Below, in pieces: positions 44,357 to 51,701 of a DNA stretch of 51,777 nt (the first letter of the stretch is position 1; each line of letters opens with the position of its first letter). A model generated the notes under the pieces. It did not search any database and was not told where the DNA came from. It worked only from the letters and a program-made list of their open reading frames with translations. The translations under genes and the position numbers were made by a program. This DNA is from Candidatus Yanofskybacteria bacterium RIFCSPHIGHO2_12_FULL_45_19b (GTDB taxonomy: Bacteria > Patescibacteriota > Minisyncoccia > 2-02-FULL-40-12 > IGHO2-12-FULL-4): NCBI GenBank assembly GCA_001794605.1, contig MGKD01000009.1, forward strand, positions 1 through 51,777, read 5' to 3'.

Positions 44357-45184
44357 TTACCAGCAGATTTCGGGATCCTCGCCAATCTTTTCTTTTAGAT
44401 ATCTTTTAACTTCAGTTTGACCGCCGATTTTATCAATTAATTTATTCTGCAATGCCATCGTGCCGAGCATTGAAGAGCCATCGGCTAATTTTCTAACCTC
44501 CTCCAATGGAATACTCCGATTATGGGCCACGTCACTAATAAAATTATCCAGCATAATATCTAAATCTCTTTGGAAAAGTTTCCGCTCTTCAGCCGTCAAT
44601 GGCTTATTGGGATCGCCAGCATTTTTGAATTTACCGGTATTAAGTTCGATAAATTCTAGGCCATTTTGGGTGTTCTGGTTAACATTCTGCAGATAAGACA
44701 TGGTGACACCAATTCCACCAACATCCGAATTGGCTGAAGCAAAGATGGTTTTAGCACCAGTGGCTGACCAGTAGGCCGCCGACACTCCGCTCTCTCTAAT
44801 CTGGGCAACAGTGGGCTTGGTAGAATATTTAAGGGCATTGGCAATCTCTTCAGCCGCCACTCCTGAACCACCAGGAGAATCAACCTCTAAGAGTATCGCC
44901 TTAACCTTGGGATCGCTTTCGGCCTCTTGGATGGTGTTGACGATTTCCTCGGATGAAGTTTGATCTACCGGCTCTTCTTCGGTTTCACCCCCTAACCGAT
45001 AGGTCACGAGTTCCCCACGCAGTTCAATCCCCCAGACATTACAGCCATAGTCAGCTGAGGTTGAATCGGACCCGGGTTTAGCGGACTCGGACGGCTCATC
45101 GGGATAAAGTACCACCCAAAATAACACCGCCAGCAAAAACAGCGCGATGAAAAGCTTAAACCAGTTTTCTTTTAGCCAAGACAT
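44357..45184 (-). CDS. sppA: signal peptide peptidase SppA, 36K type (S49)
   Basis: N-terminal TM; LLEVDSPGGSGVAAEEI, SGVSAAYW, GGIGV. Confidence 0.85.
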   Translation of the reverse strand: MSWLKENWFKLFIALFLLAVLFWVVLYPDEPSESAKPGSDSTSADYGCNVWGIELRGELVTYRLGGETEEEPVDQTSSEEIVNTIQEAESDPKVKAILLEVDSPGGSGVAAEEIANALKYSTKPTVAQIRESGVSAAYWSATGAKTIFASANSDVGGIGVTMSYLQNVNQNTQNGLEFIELNTGKFKNAGDPNKPLTAEERKLFQRDLDIMLDNFISDVAHNRSIPLEEVRKLADGSSMLGTMALQNKLIDKIGGQTEVKRYLKEKIGEDPEICW

Positions 45185-45205
45185 AGTATTAACTAATAAA
45201 TACTC

Positions 45206-45481
45206 CTAATGAATCGCAACAATACATCTATTGCCCGACCCGTGTCGAGATTCTTGGGTACTGGCAATTTTAAATTCTGTCTTACAGATAATAATACTCG
45301 CTCTTTTGTCAGTAATATATTCGGCGATATTTTTTAAGAACAAAATATCAATTTTTCCAAACTCTTCAATTATAGCCTCTAGCGTAAGCTCCCAAGCACC
45401 TTTATACTTCTTCAAAAAAGTTCTAATGAAATGTCTTTCGGTAAAAAATTCAAAAATAACCTGATACCTAGTACAGCTCAT
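45206..45481 (-). CDS. 91-aa ORF translationally coupled to the HTH-Panacea gene; candidate toxin (unclassified, RelE/HigB-like tail)
   Basis: Its ATG (45479-81) lies inside the last codons of the upstream gene, a 14-nt overlap. KTEFKIASTQESRHGSGNRCIVAIH loosely resembles the GKSGGYRVIY strand of RelE/HigB toxins. Confidence 0.5.
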   Translation of the reverse strand: MSCTRYQVIFEFFTERHFIRTFLKKYKGAWELTLEAIIEEFGKIDILFLKNIAEYITDKRASIIICKTEFKIASTQESRHGSGNRCIVAIH

Positions 45482-46151
45482 GAGGATCTTCCTGGGTTAT
45501 AAGGGCATAGGAGATAATCGCCTCATCATCAGCCATCAAGTATGGTAGTTGATTATGAGTAAAATTAACTATTTCAGCGGTTTTCTTTCCATCCCATTTT
45601 TTATGGATAGCTTTCATTAGGAATGCCTCATCATCAGAAATAGTATTGAGTTTTTGTTTTTTATTGCTCTCTGATTCACTAATAATAAGCATTTCTTTCC
45701 CGTCAGCGTTTTTACGATTAATTATGATTTTGCCTTCTTCTTCAAGTTCGTCAATGATTCTAAAATATGCATCCGGGACTGGGCCATATTTGATTTTTCT
45801 ATATTGCATGCCACTCATACTTTGGAGATGGCTATAAAACCAAGCAAAATCGGAAAGATATACAAGTTTGGCTAACTTAGTCTTGGTAATACTTTTGCCC
45901 ATCCTTAAAAAAGCTACAATCATCTGCTTATACTTATCATGATTAGGAGATTCGCCGCTTTCAAGCTCTTCAAAAGAAACCCCTAAAACACTAGATATTT
46001 TTTCAAATTCTCCCATGGTCAATTCCCGCCTACCTTGTTCGATGGCCATATATGACTGACGAGAAAGACCCAACTTTTCTGCCATGGAGAGTTGCGAAAA
46101 ACCACCTTTTATACGAAGGTTTTTGATAATGGAAGCATATTTAGTACCCAT
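45468..46151 (-). CDS. XRE-family HTH fused to a SocA/PanA (DUF4065, Panacea)-like antitoxin domain
   Basis: HTH GGFSQLSMAEKLGLSRQSYMAIEQGRRELT, then ITKTKLAKLVYLSDFAWFY...YRKIKYGPVPDAYFRIIDEL, the pattern typical of DUF4065. Confidence 0.65.
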   Translation of the reverse strand: MGTKYASIIKNLRIKGGFSQLSMAEKLGLSRQSYMAIEQGRRELTMGEFEKISSVLGVSFEELESGESPNHDKYKQMIVAFLRMGKSITKTKLAKLVYLSDFAWFYSHLQSMSGMQYRKIKYGPVPDAYFRIIDELEEEGKIIINRKNADGKEMLIISESESNKKQKLNTISDDEAFLMKAIHKKWDGKKTAEIVNFTHNQLPYLMADDEAIISYALITQEDPHELY

Positions 46152-46157
46152 AGTGTA

Positions 46158-46186
46158 ACTATATCAAATTGATGTATATAATACAA
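46158..46186 (-). promoter_or_regulatory. promoter of the HTH-Panacea operon, leaderless candidate
   Basis: TTGTAT, 17-nt spacer, TATAGT; 6 nt to ATG 46151. Confidence 0.5.
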
Positions 46187-46205
46187 ACATGCAGTGTTGA
46201 TAAGT

Positions 46206-46233
46206 TTGACATGCTCTACGGAAAGAGTAAAAT
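46206..46233 (+). promoter_or_regulatory. divergent promoter, leaderless candidate
   Basis: TTGACA, 16-nt spacer, TAAAAT; 6 nt to ATG 46240. Confidence 0.55.
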
Positions 46234-46239
46234 AAAAAA

Positions 46240-46374
46240 ATGAACAAACAAAGAAAAACAAGTGCTGGGGTAGCTAGGGTTGCATCTCGTGTCTTAAAAG
46301 ACAAGAGAACAAGCCGTAGAAACAAGATACCGGCCGCAAGTGCACTTTCTCAAAGAGCACCAAAGAGAAAGTAG
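46240..46374 (+). CDS. 44-aa extremely basic peptide (below ORF-track cutoff)
   Basis: MNKQRKTSAGVARVASRVLKDKRTSRRNKIPAASALSQRAPKRK. Consensus-like promoter upstream and a GAGAGC...GCTCTC-TTTG hairpin downstream. Confidence 0.4.
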   Translation: MNKQRKTSAGVARVASRVLKDKRTSRRNKIPAASALSQRAPKRK

Positions 46375-46460: not shown

Positions 46461-47629
46461 TTATTTTTTCTTATGTCTTATAAATATTCTTTGGTAAGCA
46501 GACTGAATTATCCTACCTTCTTTATTTATAAAATAATTCTTTTCCCCATCATTGCCAACTAAATTTGCATTTTCATTCGTTTTTCCACCAGAAGAACCTG
46601 TCTTTTGTCCATTTTGTTTTACTTCCCAATAGCCATCATATTTTTTCGTGTCAGGCACTTCATCATGACAACCCCTCTGGGTAGCACCCAAAATTTCAAA
46701 CTGATCAGGACTGTGTTTACCAAGAAAACTAATTGGCACACCCATTACTCCGTCGCAATCGCTGGGGATATATTTAACCAACGGAACCTCTACTGCGTCA
46801 TAGTTATCATACTTTCTAAATGGCTTTTTGTGCCAAATTTAATTATCTCTGCTTCGGTCATTATTGGTAAAAGTTTGTGACGTCGTCCATGATCAATATT
46901 TGTAAACCAGATTGTTCCGGCAACAAATGCGTATTTTTTGCCACCCTCCTCCTTGTGATAATTTTCAAAATTATCAGGGACTTGATACCACACATTTCGT
47001 CCATCGTTTTTACCAGCTCCGAGCCATATTCTATTATTCTTAATTAGAGGGAAGACTTCTTTATAGGTAATCGCGTTCATATTACTGATAATCACGAACT
47101 TCTTATTAGCTTCCATGATCCACGCCAAAAAATCACGGAAAAGCGAAAACGGTGGATTGGTAATAATAATATCTGCTTCATCGCGCAACTTTTTAATCTC
47201 GTCGCTACAAAAATCCCCGTCACCCTTAAGATAACACCACTCTAGGTCATTCACATCTATCTTGCCATCACCAGACTTATCACGAGACAGAGTGAATATT
47301 TTGCCGTTTTTAGTTGTTTTGTTTTTATCATATTGCGGGTCACTTGTTTCAAACAGTGTTGGTTGGTAGTTACTTTTGTAGCTTTTGCTATCCACAGCAT
47401 AACTGGTGCTAATAAGCTTTTTTAGCCCAAGCTCAGCAAACTTTTGGGCAAAAAACTTGGTAAAATTGCTCCACTCTGGATCATCGCACGGTAACAATAG
47501 CGTTTTACCTCGAAAGACATCGGGGTTGTATTCAATATAGGCAGCGATTTCTTTCTCAATATCGTGATATTGAGTATAAAACTCGTCATTCTTTGCCTTT
47601 TTAGTGTTACTGAGATTGCTATTTGCCAT
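46461..47629 (-). pseudogene. EcoRI-methylase-like N6-adenine DNA methyltransferase split by one frameshift
   Basis: N-terminus KNDEFYTQYHDIEKEI...LLLPCDDPEWSNF...GLKKLISTSY and IIITNPPF. The downstream frame continues the family pattern (KYDNYDAVEVPLVKYIPSDCDGVMGVPISFL). The frame change lies within 46790-46838, which includes an A5 run. Confidence 0.75.
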
Positions 47630-47681: not shown

Positions 47682-48554
47682 TTACTTCGCGATCTTCCAA
47701 ACACTCTTTTCTAGAAAGGCTTCGATGGTTTGACGGTTGGCTTTATTGATTAGGTTAGAGTGAGAAAGCTTGTTATTCTTGGCATATTCTACCAAGGTAA
47801 TAATGGTTTTACCTTCTAAATAGGCTAGGCGTTTATGATAGCTATTGGTGAGCGCTCGGCCGACCATTTCTTCCATAACATTAGTAGCATTTTTTTCGTC
47901 AAACTCCTTGAATGCTTCGTAATATTTATTTTTATCGATAAATTTTATGTTAATGGGAACAAACCCCTCTCGAATCAGTAGGTAATTGTTAATCACTCGT
48001 CCAATCCGGCCATTCCCGTCGACAAATGGGTGAATGTATTCAAAAGTGAGATGCAGTAACGCAATGCGCTTAATAATATTTTCATGGCTCGACGCATTGT
48101 ATTCTGCTAACATTTTGCCAAGACGATCTAATACTGCTTTTGGATCAGGAGCAATATGATTTCCGACGCGAACATACTCACCGTCTTTTCTAAATCTTCC
48201 CGCCACATCGTCGCGAATATTGGCAAGCAACAGCTGATGGAGTGATAAAATGACCTCCAGCGTAAGCTCTTGCTCTTTGGCTTTTTTATCTATGTATGAG
48301 ACAACGCGCGCTAAATTCTTAGCTTCAAAAATCTCTCGCTCAGTAATAAATCTATCCAGATCAATTTGCAGTAGGATCTTTTCTGTTTCTTCGAGTGTAA
48401 GTGTGCTATTTTCAATAGCATTTGAGTTATAGACCTGTTCAGCTACTTCATTTTCAGCGATAAGTTTGATTAGAGCCTCTTTACCAGTAGACGCCTTATA
48501 GTAGCGCTCGCGCAGAGAACTGATTTTATTGAAGATATTGAGGGTCTTTGCCAT
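47682..48554 (-). CDS. fic: Fic-domain protein, class II (N-terminal inhibitory motif), with C-terminal winged-helix-like tail
   Basis: Active site HPFVDGNGRIGR; inhibitory S-x-x-x-E-N motif SNAIEN upstream of it. Confidence 0.85.
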   Translation of the reverse strand: MAKTLNIFNKISSLRERYYKASTGKEALIKLIAENEVAEQVYNSNAIENSTLTLEETEKILLQIDLDRFITEREIFEAKNLARVVSYIDKKAKEQELTLEVILSLHQLLLANIRDDVAGRFRKDGEYVRVGNHIAPDPKAVLDRLGKMLAEYNASSHENIIKRIALLHLTFEYIHPFVDGNGRIGRVINNYLLIREGFVPINIKFIDKNKYYEAFKEFDEKNATNVMEEMVGRALTNSYHKRLAYLEGKTIITLVEYAKNNKLSHSNLINKANRQTIEAFLEKSVWKIAK

Positions 48555-48563
48555 ATGTTGTTA

Positions 48564-48634
48564 ATTGTAGGCCTTTTCACGCTTTTGTCAACTAAACCGT
48601 GAAAATCGGTGTTTTTATCGGGTTTTTCACGGTT
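48564..48634 (-). promoter_or_regulatory. fic promoter with three CGTGAAAA operator half-sites
   Basis: TTGACA (48586-91), 16-nt spacer, TACAAT (48564-69); 9 nt to the ATG. One half-site sits in the spacer (48574-81). A perfect 11-bp inverted pair, AACCGTGAAAA (48595-605) and TTTTCACGGTT (48624-34), is 18 nt apart. Confidence 0.6.
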
Positions 48635-48736
48635 ATGGGTGTAATTCTCCGTCGCTGACTCCCTCGATTCCGAAAAGAATTTTAACCTTCTTCACCCCTA
48701 AACTCTACGCCGATTTAGGGAATTTGGGAAGTGATT

Positions 48737-48781
48737 CAAAAAACAAAGCAACTATTACCTCCTGTGGATAATAGTTGCTTT
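48737..48781 (-). terminator. rho-independent terminator (second of two after the 155-aa gene)
   Basis: AAAGCAACTATTAtccacaggaggTAATAGTTGCTTT then GTTTTTTG. Confidence 0.65.
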
Positions 48782-48871
48782 TCAGCCCAGAATCTGTTAA
48801 ATTGGTAATGGCGCTTGGATGGGCTTGCCCTCTCACGGTCAATGTTTATCCAAACCGTAGCCAAGTGCCAA

Positions 48872-48897
48872 CAAAAAGCACCATTTAATTGGCGCTT
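48872..48897 (-). terminator. rho-independent terminator directly after the 155-aa gene
   Basis: AGCGCCAattaaaTGGTGCT then TTTTGT. It pairs better on the minus strand (G-U) than on the plus strand (A/C mismatch). Confidence 0.55.
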
Positions 48898-48904
48898 TTT
48901 GTTT

Positions 48905-49372
48905 TTAATCTAATTCGGGATTGCCATAATTCATTTTCCAACGATTATTATTTTTATCAATCTTCCAAAATGGTATGACGCTCCAAAAGAATTTTGGGCC
49001 ATTACTGATTTGTTTAACTACTACCCGAACACGTTTTTCATTCAAAATTGCTACAAATTCATAATATGAAACCGGCAAAAGTTTTGTCTCACTACGCTGG
49101 TTAGTACGCTCTACTTCAAAGTGGTGGGTGTGGCTAATTCCCTGGATGGTTCTGGTTGTATTAATAATTTCCTGAGCGAGAGGAAAAAGTTTGATCCGGA
49201 CGGTTTGTTCTTCAATCGTACGAGCATGGTGTTTACGCATAAATTTAAGGTGCTCCAAACCCTTCGCATTAAATATCACTGGCTCTTGAAAATACGGACA
49301 CCTGATTTCCCCGATTAGTTTATATCTAGCCTCGAACTCCAACTTGAATTTATCAAATTCTTCGTTAGTCAT
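48905..49372 (-). CDS. hypothetical protein (155 aa), own promoter and terminator
   Basis: Clean ORF MTNEEFDKFKLEFEARYKLIGEIRCPYFQEPVIFNAKGLEHLKF...; no family recognised by eye. Confidence 0.55.
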   Translation of the reverse strand: MTNEEFDKFKLEFEARYKLIGEIRCPYFQEPVIFNAKGLEHLKFMRKHHARTIEEQTVRIKLFPLAQEIINTTRTIQGISHTHHFEVERTNQRSETKLLPVSYYEFVAILNEKRVRVVVKQISNGPKFFWSVIPFWKIDKNNNRWKMNYGNPELD

Positions 49373-49406
49373 CTAGAAAAACCCTTTCTTTGTTTTCTAT
49401 ATTGAA

Positions 49407-49458
49407 ATTGTAGAGTAAATACGGCATTTCTTCAATAGTTTACAATTGTAAACTATTG
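49407..49458 (-). promoter_or_regulatory. promoter plus 26-bp perfect palindrome operator
   Basis: TTGAAG (49430-35), 17-nt spacer, TACAAT (49407-12). The palindrome CAATAGTTTACAATTGTAAACTATTG (49433-58) overlaps the -35. Confidence 0.55.
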
Positions 49459-49482
49459 AGTTTAGGGATCGATTCCATAAAT

Positions 49483-50463
49483 TTATCTTAACATCTGTGT
49501 CACGAGTGCCACCACTTGATCTTTCTTCTTTGGATCACTCTCGGCAATCAAAAGTGTCAACGCGGTAAGTGCATTCGGATTAATACTTCGCATTGTCTTA
49601 ATTTTTGTCTTTCGTAAAAACCAAATGAAAGCAAAAGCACCTGAGCGTTTATTGCCATCCGTAAAGGGATGATTCTTCACCATGAAATACAAAAGGTGCG
49701 CTGCTTTTTCCTCGAGTGTTTTATACACCGGCTTACCTCTAAATGATTGCATTACGTTTCCCACTATTCCTTCGACGCTTCCAGGTTGTTTTTCTTCTGC
49801 AAAAATATTCGTTGTTTCACCCTTACTTAAGAGTTCATTACGCAGATTTGAAATAGCTTCAGTCAGCTCTACTCCGCTTAATTCTATTGATTTTTTAGTA
49901 ACGCCGATTGGCTGTAAGGACTCCCTATCATACGCACCAAGTGATACCCAAGTGCTCGAGAATTCTTTGATAAGCTCAAGAATTGTTTTTGGATCAAGTG
50001 CAACATGTTCAGGTAATAAAGTTTGAATATCACTCACCGATTTCATAAAAGCATCATAGTTTCTCACAATCTGTTTGCGGTTTATGGTGTAGCCTTTTGT
50101 AATGTGCTCTCGAAGAGTTTTAGTGGCCCACTGGCGAAATAGTGTGGCTGTTTTACTATTCACTCGATAACCAACGGAAAGAATCATGTCGAGATTATAA
50201 TGTTTAACATCACGTTCAACTTGGCGCTTACCCTCATTTTGAACTATCCGGAAATTCCGGATAGTTGAAACTTCCGTAAGTTCTTTAGTTTTTAAAATGT
50301 TCTGGATATGTTCATTTATTGTTCTTACATCAACATTAAAAGCTCCAGCAATTTGGGCCTGAGATGCCCAAATTGTTTCGCGTGAATTATCCCCTCGTAA
50401 TTCAATTGCACCAGATTCCGCCTGGTAAATAACAATATTATTTTTTATTTGTTTCTTTTTCAT
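49483..50463 (-). CDS. RhuM-family N-terminal domain fused to Doc-type Fic domain
   Basis: N-terminus IVIYQAESGAIELRGD...HYNLDMILSVGYRVNSKTATLFRQWATKTLREHITKGY (RhuM pattern). C-terminus HPFTDGNKRSGAFAFIWFL (Doc variant HxFxDGNKR). Confidence 0.8.
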   Translation of the reverse strand: MKKKQIKNNIVIYQAESGAIELRGDNSRETIWASQAQIAGAFNVDVRTINEHIQNILKTKELTEVSTIRNFRIVQNEGKRQVERDVKHYNLDMILSVGYRVNSKTATLFRQWATKTLREHITKGYTINRKQIVRNYDAFMKSVSDIQTLLPEHVALDPKTILELIKEFSSTWVSLGAYDRESLQPIGVTKKSIELSGVELTEAISNLRNELLSKGETTNIFAEEKQPGSVEGIVGNVMQSFRGKPVYKTLEEKAAHLLYFMVKNHPFTDGNKRSGAFAFIWFLRKTKIKTMRSINPNALTALTLLIAESDPKKKDQVVALVTQMLR

Positions 50464-50507
50464 ATTAAAATCCTACCACTCCTTCAGTGATGAAGGCTAG
50501 GGTGTTT

Positions 50508-51026
50508 TTATTCTCCGTAAAAAATCTTCACCAATCTCGGCAAATCGTCCTTGCATTTATCACCAGTGGCAAGTTTTTCTAATAAGGCCTGTGGAGTGAG
50601 CCAGAAGTATTCAACAAAATCATCTTGATTGTAATCCGGCACCGTATCCATTTTGATTTCATACACATTCATATTACATGAAACACCATCTTGTTGGGGA
50701 CTGAGATGGCCGAGCAAACGAATTTGAATTTTATCGGTATCGAGATTCAACTCCTCCTGGGTTTCACGTTTAAGAGTAGCTTCATAGGTTTCAGCACTTT
50801 CTACGTGGCCGCCCATACTCATGTCTAAACATAACGGAAAACCTCTTTTACTCGCTGTGCGCCGCGGTATCCAGATTTCACCCTTGGAATTTACAATAAA
50901 AGCATTGACTACGCGGAAATTGGAAAGACCCTCGGCATAGACCTCCGAGCGTTTCTTTTTGCCGATCACCTGATCGTTGGTATCGACTAAATCTAGGTAT
51001 TCGTCTTGTGGCGCCGGATGATCCAT
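50508..51026 (-). CDS. NUDIX hydrolase
   Basis: Nudix box GGHVESAETYEATLKRETQEELNL. Confidence 0.85.
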   Translation of the reverse strand: MDHPAPQDEYLDLVDTNDQVIGKKKRSEVYAEGLSNFRVVNAFIVNSKGEIWIPRRTASKRGFPLCLDMSMGGHVESAETYEATLKRETQEELNLDTDKIQIRLLGHLSPQQDGVSCNMNVYEIKMDTVPDYNQDDFVEYFWLTPQALLEKLATGDKCKDDLPRLVKIFYGE

Positions 51027-51095
51027 TAGCCTAAACTATACACCGATTTAAAGAGTTTAGGAAGCCCTGAACCACGTAGATTCAGGGTTTTAAGC

Positions 51096-51134
51096 AAACA
51101 AAAAACCGCCTCCGAGAAGTGGGCCACGAAGGCG
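51096..51134 (-). terminator. rho-independent terminator
   Basis: CGCCTTCGtggcccacttctCGGAGGCG then GTTTTTTGTTTG on the minus strand. Confidence 0.6.
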
Positions 51135-51176
51135 ACCTCTTGTTAAGACGGTTAGAAAATGGGGGACGAGATCTGG

Positions 51177-51701
51177 CTAAACCAGAAAATTCTTATTGAG
51201 TATCTTATCTGGGCCTCTTTCATACTCCTCATAGGCCAAACCGATGAGCATCTCGGCAATAATGCCGGAGAGCATCCGATCGATCCAGCACTCAAAGCCA
51301 GAACCGGCCACGACAATTTCTTGACGCTTCACCCCACCCCAATACAGCGTATCACCAGAAAAGAGCAGGTGTGGTTGGATGTCCGAACCACCACCGTTGC
51401 GACCCTGCCAAAGCTGACGCGCTTTACCCCTAGCAATCTCGTCGAAGGGGTAGGGCCAGGTTGATTTATCACCGAAACTGTCATCGTAAATCGCCTCAGG
51501 GTGGAGCGGTGAATCCCACCATCGTGGAGAGTTGCCGGCAGGACGGTTTTCCATCGCCGGAACCAAAACAATGAAATGACACTGCAACTCTTCCACACGC
51601 GAACCTGGCAGAATCCCCCAGCTTTTCTGAGCAGAGGACAAAACGTTGAGCACAACCCGTGCAACCAAGCTTCTTGTTAAGAACTTCGGAATTATCAGCA
51701 T
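51177..51701 (-). CDS. hypothetical protein (GC-rich gene, ~174 aa)
   Basis: GGAGG 9 nt before ATG 51701. GDTLYWGGVKRQEIVVAGSGFECWIDRML loosely recalls GlcG/DUF336-type proteins, but this is not assignable by eye. Confidence 0.45.
   Translation of the reverse strand: MLIIPKFLTRSLVARVVLNVLSSAQKSWGILPGSRVEELQCHFIVLVPAMENRPAGNSPRWWDSPLHPEAIYDDSFGDKSTWPYPFDEIARGKARQLWQGRNGGGSDIQPHLLFSGDTLYWGGVKRQEIVVAGSGFECWIDRMLSGIIAEMLIGLAYEEYERGPDKILNKNFLV

Follow-up and report, generated by a model that had tools for sequence, protein, structure and literature searches.

In the 51,777 nt contig analyzed here (the window), which is from an ultra-small groundwater bacterium of the Patescibacteria, the locus at positions 45206 to 46151 is probably a decayed PanAT type II toxin-antitoxin module, in which an intact panA antitoxin gene sits beside the truncated remnant of a RelE/HigB2-like toxin gene whose product is most likely non-toxic. 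The panA gene (45468..46151, minus strand) starts with ATG and encodes 227 amino acids, and both its Pfam domains and its homolog-like length mark it as intact. The toxin gene (45206..45481, minus strand) also starts with ATG, and consists of codons 1-91 of a family of 132 amino acids followed by a TAG stop codon. An appropriate annotation for the 91-aa ORF is therefore that of a truncated toxin next to an orphan PanA antitoxin.

The original prediction had described the product of the 227-codon gene as an antitoxin with an XRE-type helix-turn-helix (HTH) domain and a Panacea (SocA/DUF4065) domain, and this was correct, as both domains exceed the Pfam cut-offs. The HTH domain occupies residues 9-63 (45963..46127, minus strand) and matched HTH_3 (PF01381; E 5.8e-13, 49.1 bits, cut-off 23) as well as PF12844 (E 1.4e-8). 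The Panacea domain occupies residues 93-202 (45546..45875, minus strand) and matched SocA_Panacea (PF13274; E 3.8e-12) over profile positions 1-110 of 113, with 47.5 bits against a gathering score of 25.7. Searches with NCBIfam and PADLOC gave only sub-threshold HTH-type matches, together with weak matches to DarG/SocA antitoxins over the Panacea part. The C-terminus of the protein (...ITQEDPHELY) is identical to that of a relative at locus L003, its length is as in its homologs, and the identical protein was present in 49 blocks of the sequence collection searched. A Panacea domain above the Pfam gathering score and conserved adjacency to a small partner gene on the same strand together place the protein among the PanA antitoxins, for 343 of which an N-terminal HTH has been reported (Kurata et al. 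2022, PMC8832971; Ernits et al. 2023, PMC10440598). The HTH domain would autoregulate the operon, and the Panacea domain would bind and neutralize the partner protein.

The two genes overlap by 14 nt (45468..45481, minus strand). The overlap reads ...CAT GAG CTG TAC TAG, with the ATG of the toxin gene embedded in the last codons of panA, and the coupled two-gene architecture that had been proposed for the antitoxin and the 91-aa ORF is thus present. The same 14-nt overlap was found in the related loci L001-L005 and in many others, while the remaining loci had overlaps of either 4 or 11 nt, or 2-6 nt between the two genes. The intergenic region upstream of panA (46152..46239) is the presumed promoter and operator by its position only. 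No clear inverted repeat of an operator-like kind was found in this region, and its sole strong sigma-70-like match (46206, 11 of 12 positions) faces away from panA, towards a divergent ORF of 44 amino acids.

Searches of the 91-aa ORF against Pfam and PADLOC gave no match, and NCBIfam gave only a chance-level match to RodZ (E 0.14). A search of a large protein collection identified 570 homologs at E <= 0.01, so that the ORF is clearly a real coding sequence. The best 120 of these 570 homologs were 64-89% identical over 93-100% of the 91-aa query and were 119-148 aa long, with 102 of them between 129 and 133 aa. In alignments with the 132-aa homologs, the ORF corresponded to residues 1-91 at 67-89% identity and ended at H91, while the homologs ran on for a further 41 residues with a conserved tail (...K..NKV.VLLVYHKNDLGG.NET..WK.L.K.NYPEY..LL). 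The antitoxin at this locus is complete, but the toxin gene lacks 41 of its 132 codons. The window copy keeps K67, K71 and R85 and lacks Y103, K105, E113 and T114, the last strand of the sheet (96-104) and the C-terminal helices.

Comparison with intact genes located the break. In DNA alignments with L003 and L004, the closest intact relative, whose toxin protein is 89% identical, and with L001 and L002, codon 92 is AAG in L003 and TAG in the window, and DNA similarity to the intact toxin genes is lost within about 15 nt of this stop codon. The GC content across the junction steps from 0.48-0.52 to 0.33-0.37 exactly at this point, and the break therefore falls at the border of a low-GC accessory region reaching to the end of the window. 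Beyond the premature TAG, a junction of 21 nt (45185..45205) leads to the ATG (45184) of a gene for an SppA-like peptidase S49 (44357..45184, minus strand; PF01343, E 6e-30), which lies outside the module on the higher-GC side of the junction. These features are consistent with a deletion at the edge of the low-GC island that would have removed the last 41 codons of the toxin gene, so that codon 92 now reads TAG. The missing 41 C-terminal residues were not encoded anywhere in the 51.8-kb window (best tblastn E 1.4). We also considered recoding or read-through of the stop codon, and rejected this as no frame of the sequence beyond the TAG shows homology to the family.

Chimeric joins do occur in metagenome assemblies, and a stop codon at a compositional boundary could suggest a sequencing or assembly artifact, with the real genome carrying an intact 132-aa gene. 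However, six independent assemblies, made from different samples with different assemblers (ENA, JGI and NCBI GCA_000998305.1), share the 91-aa ORF with the S49 gene behind it; these are the contigs displayed among the 49 blocks with the exact PanA protein. Over 2.1 kb, five of the six contigs showed between 0 and 3 differences from the window, and the sixth, L089, carried identical toxin and antitoxin DNA and diverged only further on, inside the S49 gene. The shared junction excludes an assembly artifact, and together with the lack of the missing part elsewhere in the window it makes this explanation extremely improbable. The near-identity of the sister contigs indicates that they represent one population, and they are thus uninformative on the long-term retention of the truncated gene.

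We characterized the parent family to establish what had been lost. An exhaustive profile search yielded 209 clusters (50% identity), with lengths mostly of 125-145 aa. The family is almost entirely from Patescibacteria; the source names of its homologs, where given, were Paceibacterota, Nomurabacteria, Parcubacteria and Minisyncoccia. Full-length homologs gave nothing above the cut-offs of Pfam, NCBIfam and PHROGs; three distant family members weakly matched phrog_5869, a family of unknown function, and one of 103 divergent members touched PF06296 at E 0.014, below the cut-off. Neither the window ORF, nor its close homologs, nor the 103 divergent members could be placed in the Pfam RelE/ParE clan by sequence. 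A literature search found no paper describing this toxin family.

The AF2 model of a full-length homolog (P0001; 89% identical to the window copy, alignment of 120 homologs) had a pLDDT of 92 and a pTM of 0.86, and showed the order beta-alpha-alpha-alpha-beta-beta-beta-beta-alpha, with a first strand at 7-10, helices at 12-26, 28-42 and 44-49, strands at 53-55, 63-70, 84-91 and 96-104, and helices at 113-124 and 126-129. This is the RelE/ParE fold, with N-terminal helices on an antiparallel beta-sheet. The top 25 Foldseek matches in the PDB were all toxins of the RelE/ParE superfamily (aRelE, HigB2, RelE, RelE2, YoeB, YafQ, HigB, PfiT (9w3a) and HP0892 (2otr)). The best of them was 1wmi_A (E 2.9e-3, probability 1.00), with a TM-score of 0.75 normalized by target; normalized by query, the TM-scores were about 0.5. 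Foldseek against viral structures (BFVD) gave only weak matches, to uncharacterized proteins.

The model also clarified the segment GSGNRCIVAIH, in which a faint RelE/HigB-like C-terminal strand had been recognized. This element is real and is the last before the stop codon, but in the full-length homolog it forms the penultimate beta-strand (84-91) rather than the C-terminal one. The AF2 model of the 91-aa fragment was a confident partial fold that retained the N-terminal helices and one hairpin and lost beta-1 and beta-4; its pLDDT of 89 mostly reflects the alignment and says little about real stability.

Sequence comparisons pointed in the same direction as the fold. A PDB sequence search with a shallow family profile of 12 sequences returned no matches. 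With a profile of 103 representatives, the five best PDB matches were all Vibrio cholerae HigB2, at a weak E of 0.026, and family positions 71-113 were aligned to HigB2 residues 51-92. In this alignment K71, R85, Y103 and K105 correspond to HigB2 R51, R64, Y82 and K84, whose substitution with alanine reduced activity by 170-, 350-, 1200- and 3000-fold, respectively (Hadzi et al., PMC5416850). The most conserved positions of the divergent set were K67 (99%), R85 (98%), Y103 (97%), K105 (99%) and E113 (99%); position 71 was K in 33% and K or R in 51% of sequences. Alignment of the family with a single E. coli RelE sequence using hhalign detected no signal (probability 0.3, Neff 1.9). The individual RelE and HigB2 signals are weak, yet structure, sequence and conservation agree. 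The intact family is most likely a very divergent ribosome-dependent mRNA endonuclease of the RelE/HigB2 type, with K67/K71, R85, Y103, K105 and possibly E113 as predicted active-site residues that can be tested.

Some proteins with the RelE/ParE fold are gyrase poisons and not RNases. The targets of this fold are divergent (PMC11980606), ParE structures (5ceg_B and 5cw7_F) appeared lower in the Foldseek list, and no RNase-type Pfam family was matched, so that the parent family could conceivably inhibit gyrase in the manner of ParE, or have some other activity on this fold. However, the ParE structures reached a probability of only 0.33-0.38, whereas the best structural matches and the only sequence-level ones are ribosome-dependent RNases (aRelE, HigB2, RelE, YoeB and YafQ), and of the four K/R-R-Y-K positions that match the HigB2 active site, three show 97-99% conservation. 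We therefore regard a ParE-like activity as unlikely, and the conclusion that the window copy is truncated would be the same with either activity.

The consequences of the truncation follow from these assignments. Of the residues equivalent to HigB2 R51, R64, Y82 and K84, the window copy has only the first two, and the equivalents of Y103 and K105 are those whose loss cost HigB2 most activity, so that the copy lacks the two most important catalytic positions. With the final strand, the C-terminal helix, Y103, K105 and E113 lost, the 91-aa product is most likely non-toxic, which would leave panA as an orphan antitoxin or regulator. The original prediction had offered two descriptions of the 91-aa ORF. 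A truncated mRNA interferase is supported, since homologs are 128-135 aa long and have a RelE/HigB2-like fold in full length, while the window copy ends at residue 91. A candidate new PanT toxin fails for the window copy, because that copy has lost its conserved C-terminal third and with it two of the four active-site residues that correspond to those of HigB2; the description applies only to the intact parent family in other genomes. An intact ATG, a classic overlap with the antitoxin gene and the lack of a match in curated libraries might be taken to indicate that the 91-aa ORF is itself a complete and active short toxin, a new minimal PanT. This is very improbable, as the ORF is co-linear with residues 1-91 of the 132-aa family, homologs go on for 41 conserved residues, Y103, K105 and E113, which are among the seven most conserved positions, are absent, and the downstream DNA is unrelated to the family and leads straight into another gene.

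We then considered whether the remnant is still maintained. The dN/dS of the 91 retained codons against L003 was 0.088 (dS 0.54), compared with 0.083 for panA and 0.10-0.11 between intact copies, and no family-conserved position was changed within residues 1-91. The fragment thus shows no positive evidence of decay. This suggests either that the truncation is recent, or that the fragment is still useful and under selection. Under the latter possibility, the fragment would be a non-toxic partner of PanA kept by selection, and the locus a domesticated functional two-gene unit, in which the fragment might serve in conditional cooperativity as a co-repressor, or in anti-addiction protection against incoming homologous PanAT modules. 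The low dN/dS and the retained positions fit such a role, as do the preserved overlap and start codon, the occurrence of the arrangement on many contigs from several samples, and the N-terminal helices and beta-hairpin that still model confidently. However, the contigs are from one population, as noted above, and the dS to L003 may for the most part have accumulated before the deletion. Truncation is also rare in the family, as among the best 120 of 570 matches none is shorter than 119 aa, and half of the beta-sheet is missing. Domestication of the fragment is on balance rather unlikely, and a decayed module remains the preferred interpretation. If domestication were true, the locus would be a natural case in which a genome-reduced Patescibacterium has repurposed what remains of a toxin.

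The peptidase S49 gene lies only 21 nt from the truncated toxin gene and may now be co-transcribed from the panA promoter. No terminator-like site was detected between the truncated toxin ORF and the S49 gene (45124..45206, minus strand), and because of this and the short distance the promoter controlled by PanA may also drive the S49 gene. An extended proposal, in which the fragment is a PanA-binding regulatory or anti-addiction partner and the PanA-controlled promoter may also serve the S49 gene, is decidedly unlikely in our estimation. Among 79 loci with relatives of the S49 peptidase, none had panA or the toxin gene adjoining, and the closest relatives were 62% identical without synteny. 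The peptidase is therefore not a conserved third component of the module.

Further genes were noted on the other side of the junction. A frameshift divides the gene for an EcoRI-like adenine methyltransferase (PF13651) into a part of 279 aa (46790..47629, minus strand; profile positions 1-251) and one of 106 aa (46461..46781, minus strand; profile positions 269-345). The 279-aa part had the same end in all six sister contigs, followed by a separate short ORF in five of them. No endonuclease gene was evident beside the split gene, which is probably a decaying orphan methylase. Further along, a Fic-domain protein of 290 aa (47682..48554, minus strand) and an ORF of 326 aa (49483..50463, minus strand) were identified; the latter matched the RhuM profile over its first 69 positions and the Fic profile over its last 36 positions only, and may represent a Fic/RhuM protein that has diverged or been rearranged. 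The truncated toxin, the split methylase and the Fic and RhuM ORFs jointly suggest a decaying low-GC accessory or defense island that starts near 45200 and continues to the end of the window. The content of this island varies between strains of the same population, as in L088, compared with L085-L087, a 155-aa ORF, the RhuM/Fic ORF and a NUDIX gene upstream of Fic (window positions about 48600..51700) are replaced by other genes, including one of the GSDH family.

The ORF of 44 amino acids mentioned above (46240..46374, plus strand) is very basic (MNKQRKTSAGVARVASRVLKDKRTSRRNKIPAASALSQRAPKRK) and divergent from panA at a distance of 88 nt. Of the sigma-70-like sites in the region, the best (46206, TTGACA-16-TAAAAT, 11 of 12 positions) lies in front of it. 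A tblastn search identified it upstream of the module and on the opposite strand in 2 of 84 related loci, at 70% identity in L058 and 55% identity in L079, where about 136 nt separate it from panA. The ORF probably represents a genuine small gene that accompanies the module at some loci.

The pairing of the two genes was examined across genomes. A scan of about 185,000 genomes, one per species, identified the parent family at 139 loci, 80 of which were fetched for neighborhood analysis. An HTH-Panacea homolog was located immediately upstream and on the same strand in 78 of these 80 loci (phmmer E 1e-21 to 1e-117), and the remaining two were cut by contig ends. Both features on which the original prediction depended, a DUF4065 match in the antitoxin and a partner gene conserved next to homologous antitoxins, are present. 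The family is a widespread companion of HTH-Panacea antitoxins. The flanking genes differed between loci and were often restriction-modification, GmrSD/SLFN_AlbA_2 or Fic genes. The variable flanks around a constant pair indicate that the two-gene pair is a conserved, mobile unit, and it tends to sit in defense-type neighborhoods. At two loci, L017 (3947..4396) and L076 (4001..4399), the toxin gene was split into two ORFs downstream of an intact panA. Decay of the toxin gene thus happens elsewhere too, and toxin loss with antitoxin retention may be recurrent.

The parent family is thus an uncatalogued, putative RelE-fold PanT and a divergent branch of the RelE/ParE superfamily; it is covered by no curated library, but is conceptually ordinary and challenges no current concept. 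PanA pairs with toxins of the RelE/ParE superfamily were already known, including MqsR-like toxins, ParE and the YoeB/ParE-like cluster T28 (PMC8832971; PMC10440598). The part of the PanAT dataset covered here contained no Patescibacteria entries (PMC8832971), and the intact family would extend the catalog of Panacea-neutralized toxins into the Candidate Phyla Radiation.

In comparison with known PanAT systems, the locus shares a PF13274 antitoxin with an N-terminal HTH and a bicistronic, overlapping arrangement with a small partner. It differs in that the toxin family has no match in Pfam, NCBIfam or PADLOC, and in that the module in the window is not intact, its toxin being truncated. Among the mRNases of the HigB2/PF06296 type, HigB2 provided the only sequence-level PDB matches of the family profile, and the family resembles it in the beta-sheet core and in the presence of a C-terminal helix. 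However, this profile match is marginal, all family members fall short of the PF06296 cut-off, and the catalytic Y and K have no equivalents in the window copy. The family proteins are also longer (132 against about 110 aa), with an additional helix at the N-terminus. The genetic context also differs, as higBA is arranged with the toxin first and HigA2 as antitoxin, whereas the pair described here has the antitoxin first and an HTH-Panacea protein in this role. With the RelE proteins (1wmi_A, Pyrococcus aRelE; E. coli RelE; Mycobacterium tuberculosis RelE2), the family shares the order of secondary-structure elements, but its identity to them is 10-18% and its partner antitoxin is different.
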